From Candidatus Freyarchaeum deiterrae (GTDB lineage: Archaea; Asgardarchaeota; Jordiarchaeia; Jordiarchaeales; Jordiarchaeaceae), in NCBI GenBank assembly GCA_037305845.1, contig CP147778.1:3424001-3488000 (forward strand): a DNA stretch of 64,000 nt, written 5' to 3'. Both the position numbers and the translations under genes were made by a program. The notes below the pieces were generated by a model. It did no database searches and was not told the DNA's origin. It worked only from the letters and a program-made list of their open reading frames with translations. Positions 15,103 through 46,140 of this stretch are shown in pieces (within the stretch, counting starts at the first letter, position 1; each line of letters starts with the position of its first letter).

Positions 15103-15918
15103 TCATTTTCGGCTTTTTTCTTTCTCTTCGAATCTTCGTAAGGCTTCTGTTGCGGCATCTTGGACTTCTTTTTCTTTGTCCTTTAGGGCGTGGTTGAGTG
15201 GTTTTACTGCTTTTTTGTCTCCTATTAGTCCTAGGGCTTGTACTGCTTCTCTTCGCACGTACCAGTCTTCGTCTTTGAGGGCTTGTATTAGTGGGTCTAC
15301 TGCTGTTGTGTCTCCTATTTCTCCGAGGGCTTTTGCTGCTTCTCCTCTTACCTCGCTCTCTTCGTCGTTTAGGATTTGGATGAGTGGTTCTACTGCTCTT
15401 GTTTCTTTCATGTTTCCGAGGGCCATTGCTGCTTCTCCTAGGACGTCCCAGTTTTCATCGTTTAGGGCCTGTAGGAGTGGTTCTACCGCTTTTTCGTCTT
15501 TTATTCTTCCGAGAGCCCAAACCGCGCTCAATCTAACGTCGTCGTCTTCGTCTTCCTTTAGAGTTTGTACTAGAATTTCCACAGCTTTTGCATCCCCTAT
15601 CTCGCCCAGAGCCTCCGCCGCGTTTCCTCTAACCTCACCATCTTCATCGTTCAGAAGTTGGATGAGAGAATCAACCGCCCTCCCATCTCTTATAACTCCG
15701 AGAGACTGTGCTGCTACTCCCCTAACCTCCCTGTTCTTGTCCTTTAGAACTTGGATGAGGGGCTCCACCGCCTTTGCATCCCCTAGGTCTCCGAGGGATC
15801 TTGCCGCTTCTAAACGGACTGTCCAATCTTCATCCTTAAGGTCCTTTATCAAAGTCTTTATCTCATTCTCTGCTTTCATGCTTTCCACATCCACTTGGGT
15901 AGATTCACTTTTTCCCAT
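15103..15918 (-). CDS. HEAT-repeat (PBS lyase-like) protein
   Basis: ~8 repeats of VRxxAAxALGxIGDxxAVEPLIQxLxD. Confidence 0.92.
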   Translation of the reverse strand: MGKSESTQVDVESMKAENEIKTLIKDLKDEDWTVRLEAARSLGDLGDAKAVEPLIQVLKDKNREVRGVAAQSLGVIRDGRAVDSLIQLLNDEDGEVRGNAAEALGEIGDAKAVEILVQTLKEDEDDDVRLSAVWALGRIKDEKAVEPLLQALNDENWDVLGEAAMALGNMKETRAVEPLIQILNDEESEVRGEAAKALGEIGDTTAVDPLIQALKDEDWYVRREAVQALGLIGDKKAVKPLNHALKDKEKEVQDAATEALRRFEEKEKSRK

Positions 15919-18976: not shown

Positions 18977-19495
18977 ATGAGTTCACAAAGACCCATGGGA
19001 ATAACCGCACTAGCCATAATCTTCCTAATACTTGCAACGCTAGGAATCATTGCAGGAATACTAGTCGCAGCCGTAGTGGTTCCCACGTTTCAAAACACGT
19101 TACAAAATGATTTTCTCAGTATCTTTTTCTCTTTCGGAATCACTCCAATGTACATCTATGCTCAATCTGCATTTTTACTTGATATACTTGGTGCAACCCA
19201 ATTGCTATCTTCTATTGGGGCATACCAATTCATTGCTGTGGGGGCTTTGATTGGTTCGGTTTTACATATTTTAGACGGTGTTGGCTTGTTATACATGAAG
19301 AAGTGGGCGTACTACCTTGCATTGATACTCGGAATAAGCGGCATAATCGCCGGGGTAATCGGAATAATATCTATACAGGGCATAATGGCTCTAATCGCCG
19401 GGGTAATAATAGTAATGTACCTGATATTCGCTCTGATATTCGGAATAATAATAGTAGTGTACCTGATGGTAAAAATAAAACACGAGTTTGAATAA
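18977..19495 (+). CDS. Small membrane protein, RPxG family copy 1
   Basis: QRPMGITALAIIF...GLLYMKKWAYYLAL...VYLMVKIKHEFE. Confidence 0.85.
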   Translation: MSSQRPMGITALAIIFLILATLGIIAGILVAAVVVPTFQNTLQNDFLSIFFSFGITPMYIYAQSAFLLDILGATQLLSSIGAYQFIAVGALIGSVLHILDGVGLLYMKKWAYYLALILGISGIIAGVIGIISIQGIMALIAGVIIVMYLIFALIFGIIIVVYLMVKIKHEFE

Positions 19496-19617
19496 TTACT
19501 ATTATTATTTCCTCAATTTTTTTAATTGAAATATTAAATCAATTAGGAAAAGATAATTAGTTCTTGGGTCTCTAGGAATTTTATCCCCAATGTATTTTTA
19601 CCCGGAATTGCTTCTAC

Positions 19618-19638
19618 AAAAATATTTTTATATCTAAA
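19618..19638 (+). promoter_or_regulatory. Conserved promoter cassette (AAAAATATTTTTATATCTAAA) shared by the membrane-protein paralogs
   Basis: Near-identical copies at 20416, 21012, 24192 (+) and 26587-26607, 27129-27146 (-), each about 58-65 nt upstream of the start; contains TATA-like TTTATA. Confidence 0.75.
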
Positions 19639-19680
19639 CAATGCTTTCTAGTGATTAAAAAAATATGGGTGGGATATAGA

Positions 19681-20205
19681 ATGGCTTTTAGACCGCGTGA
19701 CATAACTGGGATAGCTATAAGCCTCATAATTTTTGCCGCACTGGGAGTCATCGGAGCAATTTTTATCGAGGCTGTATTGATACCTCCTTATCAAACCTCA
19801 AACTACACCCGTCTCCTCACAATCCTCATCGGATGGTATTATTCTGGAGCCTTTTTATCTCAGGGTGAATTGATCCTTATTTCTTTCCAATCTATTTTCA
19901 TGAGCAATGGTATGACCATCGCAGGCTATTTACAATTTGTTCACGTTGGGGTTTTGATTGTTCTAGCCATTGTGCCCCTGCTTATTATTTCTGCTGTTGG
20001 ACTATTCAGGATGAAGCGATGGGGGCGCTACCTCGGGTTGGTAGTTGGATTAATATTCATAATTGGCAGTATAGCCGAAATAATAATAACAATTACAATT
20101 GGCGGCATAGTTGCGTCATTTATTGGTCTCGTTATATATTTTGTGCCCTACGGAGTATGGATAATCTTTAGAATTTATAGAGTATCAAAAGATGATTTTG
20201 AATGA
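19681..20205 (+). CDS. Small membrane protein, RPxG family copy 2
   Basis: MAFRPRDITGIA...GLFRMKRWGRYLG...KDDFE; start chosen by alignment with paralogs. Confidence 0.85.
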   Translation: MAFRPRDITGIAISLIIFAALGVIGAIFIEAVLIPPYQTSNYTRLLTILIGWYYSGAFLSQGELILISFQSIFMSNGMTIAGYLQFVHVGVLIVLAIVPLLIISAVGLFRMKRWGRYLGLVVGLIFIIGSIAEIIITITIGGIVASFIGLVIYFVPYGVWIIFRIYRVSKDDFE

Positions 20206-20242
20206 AATAAAAAAACCGCTCCCAATTTTTTTCGGGTGGTTT

Positions 20243-20427
20243 TGAATTCTTCATTATAATTTGATTTTTGCTGGTGATGTTCACCTTTCAAAAAAATTGT
20301 CTATTGCTCTGAGAAACTAAGAGAGAGTGTGCTGTTGGGAGGTGGTATCTGGTTTTGAGGATTTTTTGTTCTGAAATTTTTCTTTACTTTATTTACTCGT
20401 GATTGGTGTCGCATTAAAAATATTTTT
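20243..20427. repeat. ~185-bp intergenic repeat, inverted copy at 25828..26011
   Basis: tgaattcttcattataatttgatttt...gttcacctttcaaaaaa...gttgggaggtggtatctg...gcattaaaaatattttt matches the reverse complement of 25828-26011. Confidence 0.9.
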
Positions 20428-20465
20428 ATATTTAAATTGATAAGCCTTATCAACAGTAAAAAATA

Positions 20466-20801
20466 TTGGATGGGATATGCATTTCTTATAGACGTGGTGG
20501 TGTTACTGCACTAGCCGTACTTTTCTTATTCATCGGGGCGTATGGGGGAATTGGAGCAACATTAGCCGGGTTCTCTCTTGGCCCTACAATATTTCAACCG
20601 ATGAATATTTGGCAAATAGTATTGGTTTTGTTTATGTTTACTGTTGCGGAAATGTATGTCTTTGCTGCTTTTGGCTTGCTCCACATGAAGAGGTGGGGGC
20701 GTTACCTTGCATTGATACTTGGAGTTGGTATGATTCCTTGGATATTAGGAATAGCGATAGTAGTTTACCTTATGAGAGATGTAAAATACGATTTTGAGTA
20801 G
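20466..20801 (+). CDS. Small membrane protein, RPxG family copy 3 (shorter; start uncertain)
   Basis: SYRRGGVTALAVLF...GLLHMKRWGRYLAL...VYLMRDVKYDFE. Confidence 0.78.
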   Translation: MDGICISYRRGGVTALAVLFLFIGAYGGIGATLAGFSLGPTIFQPMNIWQIVLVLFMFTVAEMYVFAAFGLLHMKRWGRYLALILGVGMIPWILGIAIVVYLMRDVKYDFE

Positions 20802-21071
20802 CTGCAACTTTTCCTATCAAATTTTTTCTACCTGAAATGTTTGCCAAACTCCTCCTGATACTAGTCTCTTTAGCTCTTAATACTGATAATCAGAGCAGTT
20901 TCAATGTTTAAAATCCAAAAAGTGTTAAGTAGGCTTATTGGGAGGATAATCAGTTAAGTCTAAGTCTCAGTTTATAATATTTTTTGCTTGTTTTTCTTAG
21001 GTTGCTTCGACAAGAATATTTTTATATCTAAAAAATCTTTTTCAAAGGTAAAAAAGGTAGGATAGATTTAG

Positions 21072-21539
21072 ATGAGTTATAGGCCGGGTGGTGTCACAGA
21101 ACTAGCCGTAATTTTCATACTTCTTGCTGCGCTTGGCATTGGTGTTACAGTATTCATTGAGGAGGTATTAGTCGCTGGACAAGTTCAAAAGGCGTTTTTA
21201 GGCGGGATATTTTCAGTTATGACTGGGCTGTCTTTAGGATTGCCACTAGGAGATACGCTTCTCTTAGCTACGTTTTCGACAGCCAGTTACCAATCAGCTG
21301 TAGGCTTCTATCATATAGCAGCCGTGATTGCAATTATGTATGCAGCAATATGTTTACTTACTGCTATCGGCTTATTTGGGATGAAAATCTGGGGATACTA
21401 CCTAGCGTTTATAATAGGAATATTCGACATAACCGTCGGCGTAATCGGTTTGTTCTTAATAGTTGGTATAATTCCTCTGGTATTTGGAATAGTAGTATTA
21501 GTGTACCTGAGCAGAGACATAAAAGACAAGTTTAAGTAA
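21072..21539 (+). CDS. Small membrane protein, RPxG family copy 4
   Basis: MSYRPGGVTELAVIF...GLFGMKIWGYYLA...VYLSRDIKDKFK. Confidence 0.85.
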   Translation: MSYRPGGVTELAVIFILLAALGIGVTVFIEEVLVAGQVQKAFLGGIFSVMTGLSLGLPLGDTLLLATFSTASYQSAVGFYHIAAVIAIMYAAICLLTAIGLFGMKIWGYYLAFIIGIFDITVGVIGLFLIVGIIPLVFGIVVLVYLSRDIKDKFK

Positions 21540-21792
21540 AAGTCCCCCCAAATTTTTCTTCGAATCATCCATTCTTTCAAGATAGTTTGCGCGAATCCTG
21601 CCCTGGCATATTTTTGATATGAATCTGCATTCTTGATTTAAGCCAAATTTCTTGTAGTTCATAATTAGAGCTTAAGGGTTGAATGAGAAGTAATAATTTT
21701 TTTAACTCCTGATTACTTTGCAGATGAAGCGTAAACTATTCCACAAAAATTTTCTTCCAAGTTTTGAGCAGAAAACACACCATAACCAATTA

Positions 21793-23907
21793 TTAATCCA
21801 CAGAGGGTATTATTCGAACTTGTTTTCCACAATTGTTACAGAAGAAATCCTTAGGTTCGACTTTGGTACCACAGTAAGGACAATATGAAACAATCATGGT
21901 TGAAAGTTGCTGTAATTCAGGAGAAATTCCCCCGATTCCGATTCCCACAAGAGGAGCCGCGGGTTTTCTCTTACTTATTTCCCAACTAAGACTGAGTGCG
22001 ACAACTAATCCCAACGCGATTAGTCCAATTCCCCCATATGTTATATTATAGGCTGTATTTGTTAAATTGGTTATGTCGTTTAAATACAGGGCCCATAAAA
22101 CTGATGACACAGACCAGTCAACAAAAGCGGTATCGTTTAGAGCCAAGGGAATATTGAATAACGCGCTTCCACTCGCATTAACCAGCGTCAGATTTCCTGA
22201 GAAGTCATAAACCGACCTCCATAAGGGGACGATAAAACTGACTGGCACAAACAACTGTGTATCATTAAGACTGGAGAAAACCCCAGAGGATACTGTGGTG
22301 TAGGCTCTGGCATTACCGCTTACAATAAAGGATGCGTTAATGATTGGATGATTGCTGGTTATGTTTCCCACAACAACGGTAAGAACAACATCCGAGGGAG
22401 TTAGATCCCAAAAGAGCATGGGATAAGCGAGAGCCCTTATCGGAGTTATTGCAACAGGTAGGGTGAGATTGCTTCCATTATAATAACCTCGTAAATAGCT
22501 ATACGTACTAGAAATATTCAGCAGTCCGGCTCCCTGTGCAAATGGGTTCAATCCCAAGTCCTTCGCATTCATCAAAAGTGCAGCCTTAACGGTGTTCGGG
22601 GAAAGCTTAAGCCAAGGCATACCATTAGTAGTACTATTATCAAGCAGTAGAGCTATAGCTCCAGACACCACAGGGGTGGCAGCGCTAGTTCCACTAAATC
22701 CTGATGATCTAAGACCGCCAGTACTGCTCAGAGCAATTAAATTTACACCAGGAGCTACTATGTCGGGTTTGGCTCTGAGGTCATCAGTCGGCCCTAGGCT
22801 AGAGAAGTAGGCTACTGATTGGCTGGAGGAGTTAAATGCACCTACTGTAATAATGTAAGATGCCAGCCCAGGAGAACTTATAGTTCCGTAATAGGGTCCC
22901 AAAATGGTACCTCCCATGTTGATTCCACCCTCATTGCCTGCAGCTACTACCGCAATTGTGTCATTATTCACCCACGCACTGTTTACTGCCATACTCATGT
23001 CATCATAAGATGTACCGAATGAATCACCTAGAGACATTGAGACAATATCAGCCTTTGGATGGTTTATAGTATTCCATGCCTCGTTTATCGCTCCCACTAC
23101 CCAGTCCAATTGACCATATCCAGTTGCATCTAATGCTTTTAGATCCAGGAAGTTTACTGCGGGAGCTACCCCCTTCGCAGTGGGAAAATTAACACCTGAT
23201 GCTCCAATTATTCCAGCCACAGCTGTTCCGTGACCATTATGATCTAAGAAATCTTCACCTGGTACAAAACTCTGACTATAAATTATCCGGCTTCCATCTA
23301 GATCTAACTGAGGCGTAATTCCTGTGTCTATTACAGCTACGACCACTCCAGTTCCGTTTAAGTTAAATGGGGAGGCTTGGAGTGTTGTGGCTCCTATCGC
23401 GGTGTTGGCATTTGCGTCTTCGGCTTGTACTCCGTCTGTCGTTACTTGGTCGGGTACTATTTCTACTTTTTCGTTGTAGGTTATTGTGCGTATGTAGTTT
23501 TGTTGGGCTATGGTTTCAGCCATTCCTATCGGTGCCTTTATGCACACGCCGTTGATTATGGTATAGTTTGAAATGACTTCGAAGCTTCCAAGGTTTTTGA
23601 GCAGGTTTATTCCCTGTGTGTAGTTTACTGTTCCATCAAAGAAGATTAGCATCTCGCCCTGTGTTGAGGGATCGGAATTCTGGACCAAGTATTGTAGATG
23701 GGTTCCCATCTTGGAGTTTATACTGGGGGTGCTGATTGATTGATTGGGGAGGGTTAGGGTGTTTCGGGTTATTTGTTGTTGTTGTTGATTAAACGCGAGG
23801 AAAAGGGAGGCTGAAAAAATTAGTGTAACTATTATTAGGAGAAGTATGAGTTTTTTTGTTATTTTCACTCGCCCCTTCATGATATTACTACTCCCTTTTC
23901 TCCTCAT
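21793..23907 (-). CDS. Membrane-anchored S8 subtilisin-like protease with C-terminal zinc ribbon
   Basis: VIDTGI (D), GHGTAVAG (H), AAGN, GTSAATP (S); N- and C-terminal TMs; CPYC...CNNC. Confidence 0.92.
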   Translation of the reverse strand: MRRKGSSNIMKGRVKITKKLILLLIIVTLIFSASLFLAFNQQQQQITRNTLTLPNQSISTPSINSKMGTHLQYLVQNSDPSTQGEMLIFFDGTVNYTQGINLLKNLGSFEVISNYTIINGVCIKAPIGMAETIAQQNYIRTITYNEKVEIVPDQVTTDGVQAEDANANTAIGATTLQASPFNLNGTGVVVAVIDTGITPQLDLDGSRIIYSQSFVPGEDFLDHNGHGTAVAGIIGASGVNFPTAKGVAPAVNFLDLKALDATGYGQLDWVVGAINEAWNTINHPKADIVSMSLGDSFGTSYDDMSMAVNSAWVNNDTIAVVAAGNEGGINMGGTILGPYYGTISSPGLASYIITVGAFNSSSQSVAYFSSLGPTDDLRAKPDIVAPGVNLIALSSTGGLRSSGFSGTSAATPVVSGAIALLLDNSTTNGMPWLKLSPNTVKAALLMNAKDLGLNPFAQGAGLLNISSTYSYLRGYYNGSNLTLPVAITPIRALAYPMLFWDLTPSDVVLTVVVGNITSNHPIINASFIVSGNARAYTTVSSGVFSSLNDTQLFVPVSFIVPLWRSVYDFSGNLTLVNASGSALFNIPLALNDTAFVDWSVSSVLWALYLNDITNLTNTAYNITYGGIGLIALGLVVALSLSWEISKRKPAAPLVGIGIGGISPELQQLSTMIVSYCPYCGTKVEPKDFFCNNCGKQVRIIPSVD

Positions 23908-24249
23908 GGATAACCCCGTTATAATCTTTTAATCGCGAGACTACGTTTTAGATATTATTTTTGTCAAGAACTTTGGTTTTTGTTTTTAATATTTGTTTCG
24001 ATTGATGCATTCGTGTTGCATATTTTAAGTGTAATATTCATAACAATGGTGGCCCTCTATTCATTTGGCGTGATAAGATAAGATTTTCAAAGTAAAATAT
24101 GAATTCATCCGCACAATTTTTAAATTAAAAAAGTTCCCTTTTTTGTAGTGACTCGCATGATATTCCACTCTAATGTGCCTATTTTCTCTTCAAAAATATT
24201 TTTATAATTGAACAATCCTTATCAATGATTAAAAATATTAGAAGGCGTA

Positions 24250-24735
24250 ATGATGACTAATAGACCACGCAGTGTCGTCGCGCTAGCTTTAATCTTCTTA
24301 ATTATTGCACTTGCAGGAATCATAATAGGAATATACTTGCTATTTTTTGCGGTACCTGGATTTCAAAACCAGATACAAAACGATTTACTCTTTGCCATAA
24401 CCACCACCATTTCACCAACCCTTCTCGGCCCATTTACTGCACAAATTACATTGTTATTTTTGCTTGATGTACCCTCTTCGCTATCTACTATGAGTACATA
24501 CTTTTATAGTGCCCTGTTGGCTTTGATTGCTTCTGTTATGTATTTTTTCAGCGGTGTTGGCTTACTCTACATGAAGAAGTGGGCATACTACCTGGGCTTA
24601 TTAATAGGAGTATCTGATATAATCGGCGGTATAGTCCTTTTAGTAATTATAGTTGGTATACTTTTTATACCAGTCGGAATAATCATATTGGTGTATCTTT
24701 GGCGCGACGTTAAAGACGAGTTCGAGCAGGGGTAA
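24250..24735 (+). CDS. Small membrane protein, RPxG family copy 5
   Basis: NRPRSVVALALIF...GLLYMKKWAYYLG...VYLWRDVKDEFE. Confidence 0.85.
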   Translation: MMTNRPRSVVALALIFLIIALAGIIIGIYLLFFAVPGFQNQIQNDLLFAITTTISPTLLGPFTAQITLLFLLDVPSSLSTMSTYFYSALLALIASVMYFFSGVGLLYMKKWAYYLGLLIGVSDIIGGIVLLVIIVGILFIPVGIIILVYLWRDVKDEFEQG

Positions 24736-25072
24736 CATTACTCCCCCAATATTTTTTGTTTTAGAAATGGTTCGAATTTTTTAGTCCGCATAGCATTCCG
24801 TTCCAGATAGTTATGCCTCATTAAAAATGCTTTAATAGTTAAATAATGCTTATCTCTTATTAAGCAAGATATACAGGGGGGAGGGGGTCTAAATGAGGAA
24901 ATACAGACCGAGAAATAAACGCAATAATCATACATAAAGTATCCAGAATTGTAGTTTGGTATCTACTCTGGATGATGCGGAAAAAAATTAGTTGGATAAC
25001 ATTCTTCTTCCATATATCAGTTGTAAACGATCTTTTTTAGTGGAACACTTTTTTTAGTAAATTAACTTGAAC

Positions 25073-25720
25073 TCATATGGATATTTTTTTTATAGCTTCT
25101 ATTCTTTCTTTTATTGTGAGTTCTGGTAAATCGAAGCTTCCATACTTGGTTACGTGTGGCAGGCTTTCCACTTTTACCTGAGCCAGTTTCGTTAGTGCGC
25201 TTATTGCAGGTTCTTTCTTTTCCATCCAGGTGACAGCGTACTTGTCGGCGTTAAGTTCCTGATTTCTTCCAACCTGTTCTTCCAATCCGGGGTATCCGCA
25301 TTCTTTTATCACAGCTCTAATGTCTTCCAGTATGGCTTCCGTCTCTAACAGATGGATTTGTGCCCATTTTGAGAGGAGCAGGTTGAATCCCGGCTTTTCA
25401 AATTCAGACAGGAAGTTGGCTCCTGAATCATTGTTTAGAATGTGATGTATTTCGTGGAGAACAATGTATTGAAGCTCCTCGGTGTCCAACTTTTTGTACA
25501 ATTGATCAGAGACGTAGATGGCACCGAGTGGCACACAGGATTCATAGAGTCCTCTAGAGAAGACTGGGGGGTCATTGGGCTCGGCGTTAAATCTTCTTCC
25601 CGAAAGCAGCTTCAAGGGACTATTAATGCATTCAAGATGAGCGTCGATAATGTTCTGGATAACCGGCTCACCCACGGAAGACTCTTCTATTCTATCCAAC
25701 AGCTCGGACATACACATCAC
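25073..25720 (-). CDS. M48/HtpX-like zinc metallopeptidase (soluble)
   Basis: EELQYIVLHEIHH (HExxH), QELNADKYA, SALTKL, ERIEAI. Confidence 0.78.
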   Translation of the reverse strand: MMCMSELLDRIEESSVGEPVIQNIIDAHLECINSPLKLLSGRRFNAEPNDPPVFSRGLYESCVPLGAIYVSDQLYKKLDTEELQYIVLHEIHHILNNDSGANFLSEFEKPGFNLLLSKWAQIHLLETEAILEDIRAVIKECGYPGLEEQVGRNQELNADKYAVTWMEKKEPAISALTKLAQVKVESLPHVTKYGSFDLPELTIKERIEAIKKISI

Positions 25721-25827
25721 TACAACGACACGGTAAATAATCCTATTCTCTGAACTTCAACAATATTGGTCGAGGATATAAGTTAATCGCAAAAAATAAA
25801 AACACAAACACTTCAAACAATTAGAAA

Positions 25828-26011
25828 AAAAATATTTTTAATGCAACACGAATCCTGGGTAAATAAAGTTAAGGGAAATTTCAGAACTAAAAATCTTCAA
25901 AATCAGATACCACCTCCCAACGTAAATACGCTCTTAGTCTCTCAGAGCAATTGACAAATTTTTTGAAAGGTGAACATTACCAGTGAAAATCAAATTATAA
26001 TGAAGAATTCA
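25828..26011. repeat. Inverted copy of the 20243..20427 repeat
   Basis: Reverse-complement alignment by eye, high identity. Confidence 0.9.
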
Positions 26012-26042
26012 GAACATTTGGGGAAAAAATTGAGGGGGGATT

Positions 26043-26546
26043 TTATCTCATTTCAAAATCCTCTTTTACCACACTGTACAGGTACACGACTATCATTATT
26101 CCAGCTGACACAATAAGTATACCACCAGTAAGAATAAATATCACTGATATGATGCCACCGATTATGAATAGTATTCCAACTATTATCCCGAGGTAGCGTC
26201 CCCATTGCTTTATTCTGAATAATCCAACAGCAGAAATAATTAGCAAGGGCACAGCGATCAAGCTAATCAGAACCCCTATGTACATAAAGGATAAGAAACT
26301 CATATTGCTGCTTATGATAGTACCAATTATGAAAGCTATAGTGATAGGTAAAATTTGGGCTAGCTCTGGCGGTAAACTAGCTGACAAAGAATATATCAAG
26401 GGGATTGAAAGGAGATTGACGAAGTTTGAGATTTGATACTGAGGTATAAATACAGCCTCGATAAAAATTGCTCCAATGACTCCCAGTGCGGCGAGAATTA
26501 TGAAGATTATAGCTAATGCAGTCACGCCATTTGGTCTAAATGCCAT
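26043..26546 (-). CDS. Small membrane protein, RPxG family copy 6 (closest to copy 2)
   Basis: MAFRPNGVTALA...AALGVIGAIFIEAV...PLLIISAVGLFRIKQWGRYLG...VKEDFE. Confidence 0.85.
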   Translation of the reverse strand: MAFRPNGVTALAIIFIILAALGVIGAIFIEAVFIPQYQISNFVNLLSIPLIYSLSASLPPELAQILPITIAFIIGTIISSNMSFLSFMYIGVLISLIAVPLLIISAVGLFRIKQWGRYLGIIVGILFIIGGIISVIFILTGGILIVSAGIMIVVYLYSVVKEDFEMR

Positions 26547-26651
26547 TTTATATCCCGCCCATATTTTTTATCATTATGAAGTGTTGTTTAGACATAAAAA
26601 CATTTTTGTGCGGGTAAACATTGTAGAAAAAATTTGAAGGAAAAAATGTCT

Positions 26652-27087
26652 TTATTGAAACTCGTATTTTACGTCGCGCAAAAGGTACACCACTACCACT
26701 ATTCCAAATACTAATAGAATTATACTAACTATCAATAGTGATGAGCGCACTGTCCATAGTAATGAGAGCACACCGCCGATTATCATGAATACTAAGTATC
26801 AATGCGAGGGTACGTCCCCAGTTCATCATGTAGAGCAAGCCAATAGCAGTTACGGTATATATTGCCGCCACAATAATTGCACCCACCATCTCTAATTCAT
26901 AGATGCCCATGCTATTTCCATAACTAGTGCCTGACATAAATGTCCTACTGGAAAGCACCGCCCATTGAATGCTTAGCGCAGACATGTCTGTAATTACCAC
27001 GATTATTACGGTGATACTCACAACCACCCCAAAAATTATAAAAAATACAGCTAGTGCGATGACACCACCCGGTCTACCAGAAGACAT
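26652..27087 (-). pseudogene. RPxG family copy 7, frameshifted near 26790
   Basis: GRPGGVIALA...GLLYMMNWGRTLAL; the alternate frame continues FMIIGGVL...FGIVVVVYLLRDVKYEFQ* to 26652. Confidence 0.8.
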
Positions 27088-45183: not shown

Positions 45184-45621
45184 CTACTTTTCGAACCAGC
45201 CAGCTATACCTGCGACCAGGCCCAGCAAGCCACCTAGGTTGAAAGCTAGTAATCCGATGAATCCGATAACCGCCATGAGAGCTGCTCCAGCTTTTCTCTC
45301 GCCCCAGAGAAGAGCTCCACCGATGAGGATTAGTATACCATGGCCTGCGATTACGATCCCGGCTAATGTTATGCCTGATGCGCCTGCGAATCCTAGTATG
45401 GGAGCAAGCGGACCGAAAGTGAATGAAGCCAATGTTGGCGATAACTGTTGAATGAGTTGAAGAATGATGGTAATCATGTCAGGGAATATCAACATATACA
45501 TGTAATAGCTGTTAATGGTGTTTGTTAGTCCGACTCCTAGGAATAGAATCACTAGACCGGCTAAAACTGCGTAGATACCGCCTATAATGCCTAAAACGGC
45601 CCAAGCTTTAATTTCTGTCAT
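45184..45621 (-). CDS. Small Gly-rich membrane protein
   Basis: MTEIKAWAVLGIIGGIY...FNLGGLLGLVAGIAGW; start moved to ATG 45621. Confidence 0.78.
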   Translation of the reverse strand: MTEIKAWAVLGIIGGIYAVLAGLVILFLGVGLTNTINSYYMYMLIFPDMITIILQLIQQLSPTLASFTFGPLAPILGFAGASGITLAGIVIAGHGILILIGGALLWGERKAGAALMAVIGFIGLLAFNLGGLLGLVAGIAGWFEK

Positions 45622-46140
45622 GTGTTTATACCTCTCTAATTTTCTCCTTTTTCTGTTTTTTCTCCCCAATTTAGGGGGGTGTTCAATAGCATTATTTTAT
45701 GCTATTAGTGGTTATGGTTTAATACATCATTTATAAGCTTTATTGCTGGTAAAGTTAGGGTCTTCGACAATTGCTTAAATACTTCATATTACAATGTTAT
45801 TAAAAAAAATTATTAATCTAATAAAAACAATTAAGACTGATTCCTCAGCCGATTCCCAAGAAAGCTATACGCTAACAAAAAAATAAACTACAGAGCTTAG
45901 CATCTTCCAATTAAAACCAAAAAAGAACCTCACTAAAACTAATTTTTGCAGTAAACAGAATTTACTATAAATAAGAGTGGAGCATTTTCTTCCAAAAATG
46001 TTGGAAACTAACTGTTTGTTTAAAAACACTAAAGATCCGTAGGAGAAAGCAGGAGAAAACAAACCTGCTGATTTAAAACTTCCACGATTTTTACACCATC
46101 GCTGCGGCTTTTTCAGTCAACCCGATAGATTGATTTACGT

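Follow-up and report, generated by a model that had tools for sequence, protein, structure and literature searches.

A lineage-specific array of DUF2127/DUF7144 four-helix membrane proteins and its protease neighbours in Candidatus Freyarchaeum deiterrae

The DUF2127 (PF09900) and DUF7144 (PF23636) proteins, some of them labelled 'DUF2068 family' in IMG, are small membrane proteins with four helices that occur in bacteria and archaea; they are uncharacterised, and no functional study of either was found in the literature. Seven genes of this superfamily, referred to here as copies c1 to c7, form an array at positions 18977-27087 of a 64,000-nucleotide stretch (the window; C1:3424001-3488000) of the closed genome of Candidatus Freyarchaeum deiterrae (3,576,204 bp, 40.7% G+C). 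Our analysis showed that the array genes belong to a lineage-specific, expanded, and fast-evolving clade of the superfamily, in which the variable segment of the protein, about 45 residues between the first and second transmembrane helices (TM1 and TM2), is an insertion particular to the clade. Taken as a whole, the family is best explained as a set of membrane adaptors with a cytoplasmic docking face, a tentative reading to which we assign a probability of about 0.45. Like the ordinary DUF2127 and DUF7144 proteins, the array proteins carry three shared motifs and four hydrophobic helices and, leaving the insert aside, have a size of about 115-150 amino acids. The array clade differs in its variable hairpin of about 45 residues, in its approximately 10-15 copies per genome, partly in tandem, and in that most of its copies score below the Pfam cut-off.

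Two further groups of described proteins invite comparison. Tetraspanins also have four transmembrane helices with both ends inside, two helices extended outward as a stalk, and a variable external part, and the TspanC8 tetraspanins offer a further parallel in their partnership with a membrane protease. In the array proteins, however, it is TM1 and TM2, not TM3 and TM4, that flank the large external element, and the likeness comes without sequence similarity. The second group concerns an M48-like zinc peptidase encoded within the array. The minigluzincins (projannalysin MJ1213 and proabylysin) and the M48/M56 catalytic domains (HtpX and BlaR1) share with it an HExxH motif and a downstream glutamate. 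Compared to the minigluzincins, the M48-like peptidase is likewise soluble but about twice as large, and its sequence matches in the PDB are weak (E 0.08). Unlike HtpX, Ste24, and BlaR1, it has no membrane helices.

Superfamily identity and array layout

The array proteins were first read from the sequence alone as having a constant-variable-constant layout, and this layout is real. Three constant motifs were confirmed, namely RPxG(V/I)xALA, GL(L/F)xMKxWGxYL, and VYLxxDVKxEF. Among 70 members of the clade, the mean pairwise identity is 0.51 in the N-terminus, 0.61 in the inner loop, and 0.58 in the C-terminal tail, compared to 0.14 in the hairpin, which has a length of 45 +/- 6.6 residues. The transmembrane helices have intermediate values (TM1, 0.32; TM2, 0.29; TM3, 0.43; TM4, 0.44).

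Profile comparison placed the clade within the superfamily. When it was aligned by hhalign with distant DUF2127 and DUF7144 members, the match was full length, with 132 columns aligned, a probability of 99.8%, and an E value of 2.7e-30, and the hairpin appeared as an insertion or gap of about 40 residues relative to the distant members. The consensus of the latter carries the same motifs (RPxGV..LA, GLLxxKxW.R.LA, and YL....VK..F). Thus, the constant motifs are not special to the array but are hallmarks of the wider superfamily, while the variable segment is specific to the clade. Superfamily membership is further indicated by the combination of a significant profile match with four hydrophobic helices, evident from hydropathy and from the AlphaFold model, that bear the shared RPxG, KxW, and YL..VK..F motifs. 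In Pfam searches, DUF2127 was matched at E<=0.01 by 31 of the 70 clade members and DUF7144 by five; among the array copies only c2 scored above the DUF2127 cut-off, and the others reached 12-21 bits. The ESM Atlas yielded leads only, at 0.88, toward DUF2127/DUF7144 clusters. No characterised housekeeping family matched, and on this point the earlier reading stood. Elsewhere in the window (45184-45669, minus strand), a 161-amino-acid four-helix membrane protein with a DUF2127 score of 25.4 bits is unmatched by the clade profile and represents a more ordinary member of the superfamily.

All seven small homologous open reading frames (ORFs) were confirmed in the region, and a profile of the seven copies, searched against the whole genome, recovered the same seven places with E values of 1e-59 to 1e-29. 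The array, with its two protease genes and two further features discussed below, is composed as follows.

15103-15918, minus strand: HEAT-repeat protein of 271 amino acids, 3 kb from the array; the best match in the genome to the HEAT domains fused to family members in relatives
18977-19495, plus strand: copy c1, a membrane protein of 172 amino acids with four helices, in which a TM4-like stretch is duplicated; E 4e-54 with the family profile and a weak DUF2127 match of 20.7 bits
19617-19640, plus strand: promoter element CAAAAATATTTTTATATCTAAACA, resembling a B recognition element and TATA box (BRE/TATA-like), about 60 nt before the ATG of c2
19681-20205, plus strand: copy c2, 174 amino acids from the ATG at 19681; DUF2127 28.2 bits (cut-off 24.3); inverted-duplicate partner of c6
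20466-20801, plus strand: copy c3, a short form of 111 amino acids with a hairpin of about 8 residues and a shortened TM3; TTG is its only start
21072-21539, plus strand: copy c4, 155 amino acids
21793-23907, minus strand: S8 subtilase of 704 amino acids between c4 and c5; Peptidase_S8 163.7 bits
24250-24735, plus strand: copy c5, 161 amino acids, the copy modelled with AlphaFold; divergent from the S8 gene and convergent with the M48-like gene
25073-25711, minus strand: M48-like zinc peptidase of 212 amino acids between c5 and c6; Peptidase_M48 44.3 bits
26043-26546, minus strand: copy c6, 167 amino acids, inverted duplicate of the c2 unit
26652-27087, minus strand: copy c7, with a frameshift near 26795; the N-terminal 100 residues lie in one frame and the conserved C-terminus in the +1 frame

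Seven paralogs interleaved with two proteases are therefore present as originally described, with corrections to some of the copies: c7 is frameshifted, its C-terminal ...VVVYLLRDVKYEFQ being read in the +1 frame, and c3 is shortened. In c3, RR replaces the RP of the N-terminal motif, and this copy may be decaying. The start of c2 is probably the ATG at 19681 rather than a GTG at 19651.

The array accounts for seven of the approximately 15 strong family members in the genome; three more lie 4-6 kb ahead of the window, and five are dispersed. The three upstream members stand in a row at C1:3418279-3420369, and the second of them is a fusion with a zinc ribbon and a RING finger. An exhaustive HMMER search of 1.84 billion representative sequences returned only 221 proteins at E<=1e-3, 83 of them at E<=1e-10, the weaker and shorter matches (115-150 amino acids) being ordinary DUF2127/DUF7144 proteins. 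Each of five other genomes of the genus carries 9-15 family matches, while each of the 35 other Asgard genomes searched gave at most one, weak and limited to the C-terminal half. Within the phylum, few genomes have PF09900 itself (7 of the 61 searched). All named relatives of the family and of the M48-like peptidase come from Candidatus Freyarchaeota, Jordarchaeia, or Jordarchaeum, and these searches showed that the clade is confined to Freyarchaeia/Jordarchaeaceae. No relatives of the family were found among the viral contigs of IMG/VR.

Predicted structure and topology

An AlphaFold2 model of c5, built from a 70-sequence alignment, had a mean predicted local distance difference test score (pLDDT) of 93.9 and a predicted template modelling score (pTM) of 0.82. 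It comprises helices at residues 7-54, 60-106, 110-130, and 134-152, together with a short helix at 155-160. In this model, TM1 and TM2 run on as a long helical hairpin, and the variable segment forms its distal half.

The distribution of lysine and arginine in the 70 members provided an estimate of orientation. On average, each protein has 1.5 such residues in the N-terminus, 2.3 in the turn between TM2 and TM3, and 1.5 in the C-terminal tail (about 5.4 in sum), compared to 0.63 in the 45-residue hairpin and 0.01 in the turn between TM3 and TM4 (0.64 in sum). By the positive-inside rule, this bias places both termini inside and the hairpin outside, so that the three conserved motifs, namely the N-terminal RPxG, the MKxWGxYL turn, and the C-terminal VYLxxDVKYEFE tail, are predicted to share the cytoplasmic face. 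The proposal that the variable segment is external is thus upheld as a prediction from charge, with which the AlphaFold model agrees.

Some members depart from this plan. In c3 and the RING-fused forms, TM3 and TM4 shrink to about 24 residues; c3 and a relative designated P0078 are short forms with this reduced TM3-TM4 region.

Structure searches led to no fold assignment. Foldseek found nothing in the PDB at E<=0.001, and a wide VIA structure search returned generic helical hairpins with Z scores of 9-10.7, which are inside the helical background. The only whole-length VIA matches were tetraspanins, with Z scores of 10.1 and 9.9 over 126-127 aligned residues. The structures compared were Tspan15 with ADAM10 (PDB 8esv) and CD53 (PDB 6wvg). 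These scores fall within the helical background as well, and the likeness is an analogy at most. Membership in two known four-helix families was considered and rejected. The array proteins lack the tetraspanin hallmarks, namely the second extracellular loop (EC2) between TM3 and TM4, the CCG motif, and the disulfides, and their hairpins contain no cysteines. Compared to claudin/PMP22 proteins, the hairpin is helical and the W-GLW-C-C motif is absent, and PF00822 was matched by one of the 70 members (E 6e-4).

Evolution, transcription and protease linkage

The paralogs are old. A tree of 75 members spread the window copies over distinct, old clades, in which they have orthologs of their own elsewhere: P0016 and P0004 group with c5, P0006 with c2, P0005 with c6, and a dispersed copy with c3 (P numbers designate protein relatives, G numbers the genomes of the genus, with G000 the source genome, and L numbers loci or contigs). 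Since synonymous sites are near saturation among the window copies and against the other genomes of the genus, the ratio of nonsynonymous to synonymous substitution rates (omega) was measured on the close genome pair G004/G005. Pooled over six ortholog pairs, omega was 0.42 in the hairpin and 0.35 in the rest of the protein (Fisher p 0.30), and the hairpin value was below 1 (p 3e-4). Two pairs had a hairpin omega of 1.6-1.9, on 11-15 changes only. For the family genes, omega was 0.21-0.88 and the nonsynonymous rate (dN) 0.06-0.13, compared to 0.04-0.09 and 0.014-0.027 for the neighbouring M48, CCG, and FAD-oxidase genes in the same genome pair, so that the family evolves 3-9 times faster than adjacent genes at nonsynonymous sites. 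In more distant members of the genus, syntenic copies are 25-50% identical, compared to 66-76% for the M48-like peptidase, and the array changes in composition and order from one species to another. No diversification machinery was seen near the array. The array is not a hypervariable repertoire; the 'diversifying' part of the sequence-only reading was not borne out by these old paralogs with orthologs, whose hairpins show no excess of omega over the rest of the protein.

The sole recent event among the window copies is an inverted duplication or conversion involving c2 and c6, which spans about 800 bp. The nucleotide identity between the two copies is 77-92% in the promoter, the leader, TM1, TM2, and 200 nt of 3' non-coding sequence, and 32-48% in the hairpin. 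Their orthologs P0006 (c2-type) and P0005 (c6-type) come from one other organism. Quartet-informative sites, which are few, favour the same-genome pairing at a ratio of 3:1 in the N-terminus and TM1 and the orthologous pairing at 7:1 in the hairpin; an insert of 10 residues between TM3 and TM4 follows orthology like the hairpin. These small numbers fit gene conversion of the constant parts, with old hairpin types apparently persisting across species. Downstream of c2 and c6, a 94-nt non-coding stretch (20334-20427 compared to 25828-25921) is 88% identical, above the value for the coding hairpins, and its c6-side copy lies about 110-210 nt upstream of the M48-like gene. In the locus pair L013/L014, the family pairs c and e have synonymous divergence (dS) of 0.08-0.14 compared to 0.31-0.43 in flanking genes, which may reflect recent conversion or exchange, or small-sample noise.

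Upstream sequences indicated how the genes are likely to be transcribed. Every array copy has a BRE/TATA-like element about 60 nt ahead of its start. Copies related to the promoter element before c2 are found at 21011, 24191, and 26585 (minus strand), with a weaker form before c1, c3, and c7, and the leader of each copy has a GGAGG/GGTGG site. With up to 4 mismatches allowed, the 24-nt promoter consensus has five matches in the 3.58-Mb genome, all directly upstream of array copies, and related elements also precede orthologs in other genomes as well as dispersed copies. Judged by these elements, each copy is a transcription unit of its own with a family-specific TATA/leader cassette. An orphan cassette at 24813-24866 (65-81% identical to the others), just after c5 and with no family gene behind it, may be the remnant of a lost copy. 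The upstream regions of the S8 and M48-like genes differ from the family cassette, which neither protease carries, and the M48-like gene is convergent to the neighbouring family gene. Thus, the proteases are not co-transcribed with the array genes.

The S8 subtilase has the catalytic triad D194/H226/S408 (DTG at 194, HGT at 226, and GTSAA at 406) expected of Peptidase S8. It consists of an N-terminal signal anchor, an external catalytic domain with 18 N-x-S/T sequons, a C-terminal transmembrane helix, and a cytoplasmic zinc ribbon. The zinc ribbon was considered as a link to the RING protein near the window, and this was not used because the likeness is only a generic CxxC pattern. A subtilase with the ...NYCPYCGT...FFCxNCG tail is found inside the array in three of the eight genomes or contigs compared (G000, G002, and L038), while G004 and G005 have a dispersed S8 paralog only; the S8 gene is an optional insert of the array. 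In one contig (L038:3957-8349), two tandem subtilases lie inside the array, the zinc-ribbon tail being present on the second only. Two other arrays contain a 422-amino-acid ORF without a Pfam match (L014:5365-6633 and L037:3562-4830), roughly at the place occupied elsewhere by the S8 gene.

The M48-like peptidase contains HEIHH and the glutamate of a downstream QELNAD, with H88, E89, H92, and E154 invariant in 14 orthologs, and its Pfam score of 44.3 bits compares to a cut-off of 20.3, placing it in Peptidase M48. It has no hydrophobic segment, transmembrane helix, or signal peptide, and is therefore taken to be soluble. NCBIfam gave only HExxH-local matches to HtpX, BlaR1, and Lit, far below their cut-offs, and an AlphaFold model from 14 close orthologs was poor (pLDDT 57.5). 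The gene is single-copy in the genome, a search of 41 genomes found it in the genus alone, and the 14 database clusters of the peptidase all share at least 66% identity with it.

The M48-like gene stands beside the array in seven of the eight genomes or contigs, which belong to one genus or family. It is tail-to-tail with a family gene in six (G000, G001, G002, G004, L037, and L038), and G005 has this arrangement too, broken by an IS605-type TnpB gene; the contig of the eighth, G003, ends 98 bp after the M48-like gene. The interrupting TnpB/OrfB gene (Cas12f1-like TNB and OrfB_IS605) lies between the M48-like gene and the first array copy at L014:1870-3012 in G005, and also in L036. The linkage is consistent within the genus, and the enzyme looks dedicated. 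The M48-like gene is also kept near the same alpha/beta-hydrolase gene, so inherited gene order is a sufficient explanation for the linkage. The protease linkage expected in relatives was thus found in part: the M48-like gene lies at the edge of the array across the genus, whereas the S8 gene is in three of eight arrays. The genes around the five dispersed copies are unrelated and include no protease, and no protease lies beside six distant superfamily members in other Asgard genomes. With the separate transcription also taken into account, a coupling of the family and both proteases as one system is supported only in part. PADLOC found no defence-system match for the family or the M48-like peptidase and only generic subtilase models for the S8 protein.

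Fusions and possible function

Fusion proteins among the relatives pointed to a possible function. HEAT repeats follow directly after a retained ...VKYxFE tail in five relatives (P0068, P0077, P0084, P0085, and P0086). In P0078, the tail is followed by a segment resembling the Vps23 core, a zinc ribbon, and a RING finger, and in the source genome a relative of P0078 (C1:3418895-3419659) is a family member serving as membrane anchor of a zinc ribbon and RING module. One longer relative has a charged coiled-coil region. The C-terminal tail is retained as the junction in every fusion. Compared to the RING-fused protein, the seven array copies stop at the conserved tail without a cytoplasmic domain. 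A candidate separate partner is the HEAT-repeat protein encoded 3 kb from the array, and in G002 a HEAT gene adjoins a family gene.

The conservation of the inner face and C-terminus, together with the fusions, favours a membrane adaptor with a common docking surface. The common inner face and tail would hold cytoplasmic partners at the membrane, while the outer hairpin would give each paralog its own specificity of contact or self-association. HEAT-repeat proteins and, in one branch, a zinc-ribbon/RING module are candidate partners, and the soluble M48-like peptidase may act on the cytoplasmic tail in trans.

Several points weigh against this adaptor reading. Its evidence consists of the fusions and the pattern of conservation, and the five HEAT fusions probably go back to between one and three events. 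The genome contains about 27 HEAT matches, and the margin by which the protein near the array ranks at the top is small (1.2e-18 compared to 1.4e-18). Both the topology and the exposure of the hairpin are predictions, and TM3-TM4 of the short forms are hard to fit to a simple four-pass topology with the C-terminus inside, which makes the topology of these forms uncertain. Furthermore, the high omega of the whole protein may only reflect tolerant hydrophobic helices.

That last point bears on an alternative in which the proteins are low-constraint membrane fillers or general organisers, in the tetraspanin or MARVEL sense, which have no specific partner and whose protease and HEAT neighbours are coincidental. 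In favour of this are an omega that is high along the whole length, the apparently decaying copies c3 and c7, the unrelated neighbourhoods of the dispersed copies, and tetraspanins as the only whole-length structural matches. The strong conservation of the inner-face motifs over a wide superfamily and of the extreme C-terminal tail, the junction of every fusion, is difficult to reconcile with fillers, and a tetraspanin Z score of about 10 is, by the search tool's own account, within the helical background; we regard this explanation as unlikely. A hetero-oligomeric membrane assembly (a pore, channel, or scaffold ring), in which the hairpins bundle as an external stalk and the paralogs fill different positions, is equally unlikely in our estimate. 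It would account for the several old and distinct paralogs kept per genome across species, and both the long, uncharged, rather hydrophobic hairpin helices and the predominance of helical-hairpin oligomerisation modules among the structural matches suit bundling, but array composition, order, and copy number vary by species, syntenic copies are far less alike than their M48-like neighbours, two of the seven copies look damaged, and the genes are separately transcribed with many copies dispersed.

Two other explanations give the proteases a larger part. In the sequence-only reading, the array was a diversifying surface recognition or immunity repertoire; in its fuller form, the hairpins would be processed or gated by the external S8 protease and the tails by the M48-like peptidase. 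This is quite unlikely: although variability peaks in the hairpin, which is predicted to face outward as the S8 catalytic domain would, and although the family outpaces its neighbours and two pairs have a hairpin omega above 1, the pooled hairpin omega is below 1 and no different from the rest, and the paralogs are old. The presence of the M48-like gene at the array edge and of the zinc-ribbon S8 orthogroup inside three of eight arrays, duplicated in one, has to be set against the absence of S8 from the other five, the lack of co-transcription, the dispersed copies without proteases, and the absence of PADLOC matches for the family and M48-like peptidase and of viral-contig relatives; moreover, all of the synteny is inside one genus and may be inherited order only. 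A narrower proposal makes the M48-like peptidase a cytoplasmic protease dedicated to processing or quality control of the family members, its substrates, through recognition of their conserved C-terminal DVKYEFE tail. Membrane proteins are known targets of M48 relatives such as HtpX. The peptidase itself is soluble and intact, occurs once in the genome and only in the lineage that has the family, and its gene invariably stands tail-to-tail with a family gene, although which copy adjoins it differs by species. The synteny that makes up this evidence comes from one genus and, with the same alpha/beta-hydrolase kept nearby, is explained by inherited order, the peptidase has its own promoter, and its AlphaFold model is not usable; the proposal appears very unlikely.

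The adaptor reading can also be extended. In its most far-reaching form, the family would be an Asgard-specific modular set of adaptors or receptors in which the variable hairpin recognises partners or ligands, the constant inner face and the VKYEFE tail dock HEAT and RING/ESCRT-type modules (ESCRT, endosomal sorting complex required for transport), and the M48-like peptidase and, in some species, the S8 protease with its zinc-ribbon tail control turnover. We consider this extension highly improbable; if true, the set would be a functional analogue of the partnerships between tetraspanins and proteases, or of the ubiquitin-linked sorting of receptors in eukaryotes.

Among known prokaryotes, the Asgard archaea stand nearest to eukaryotes, and their membrane proteins are little known. 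The present analysis removes the unsupported reading of a protease-gated hypervariable repertoire and leaves a dedicated-looking soluble M48-like enzyme at the edge of the array. The confidently predicted fold, the split in conservation between inside and outside, and the HEAT and RING fusions make these proteins testable candidates for tethering cytoplasmic machinery to the membrane, and a functional result obtained here would carry over to the wider DUF2127/DUF7144 superfamily.

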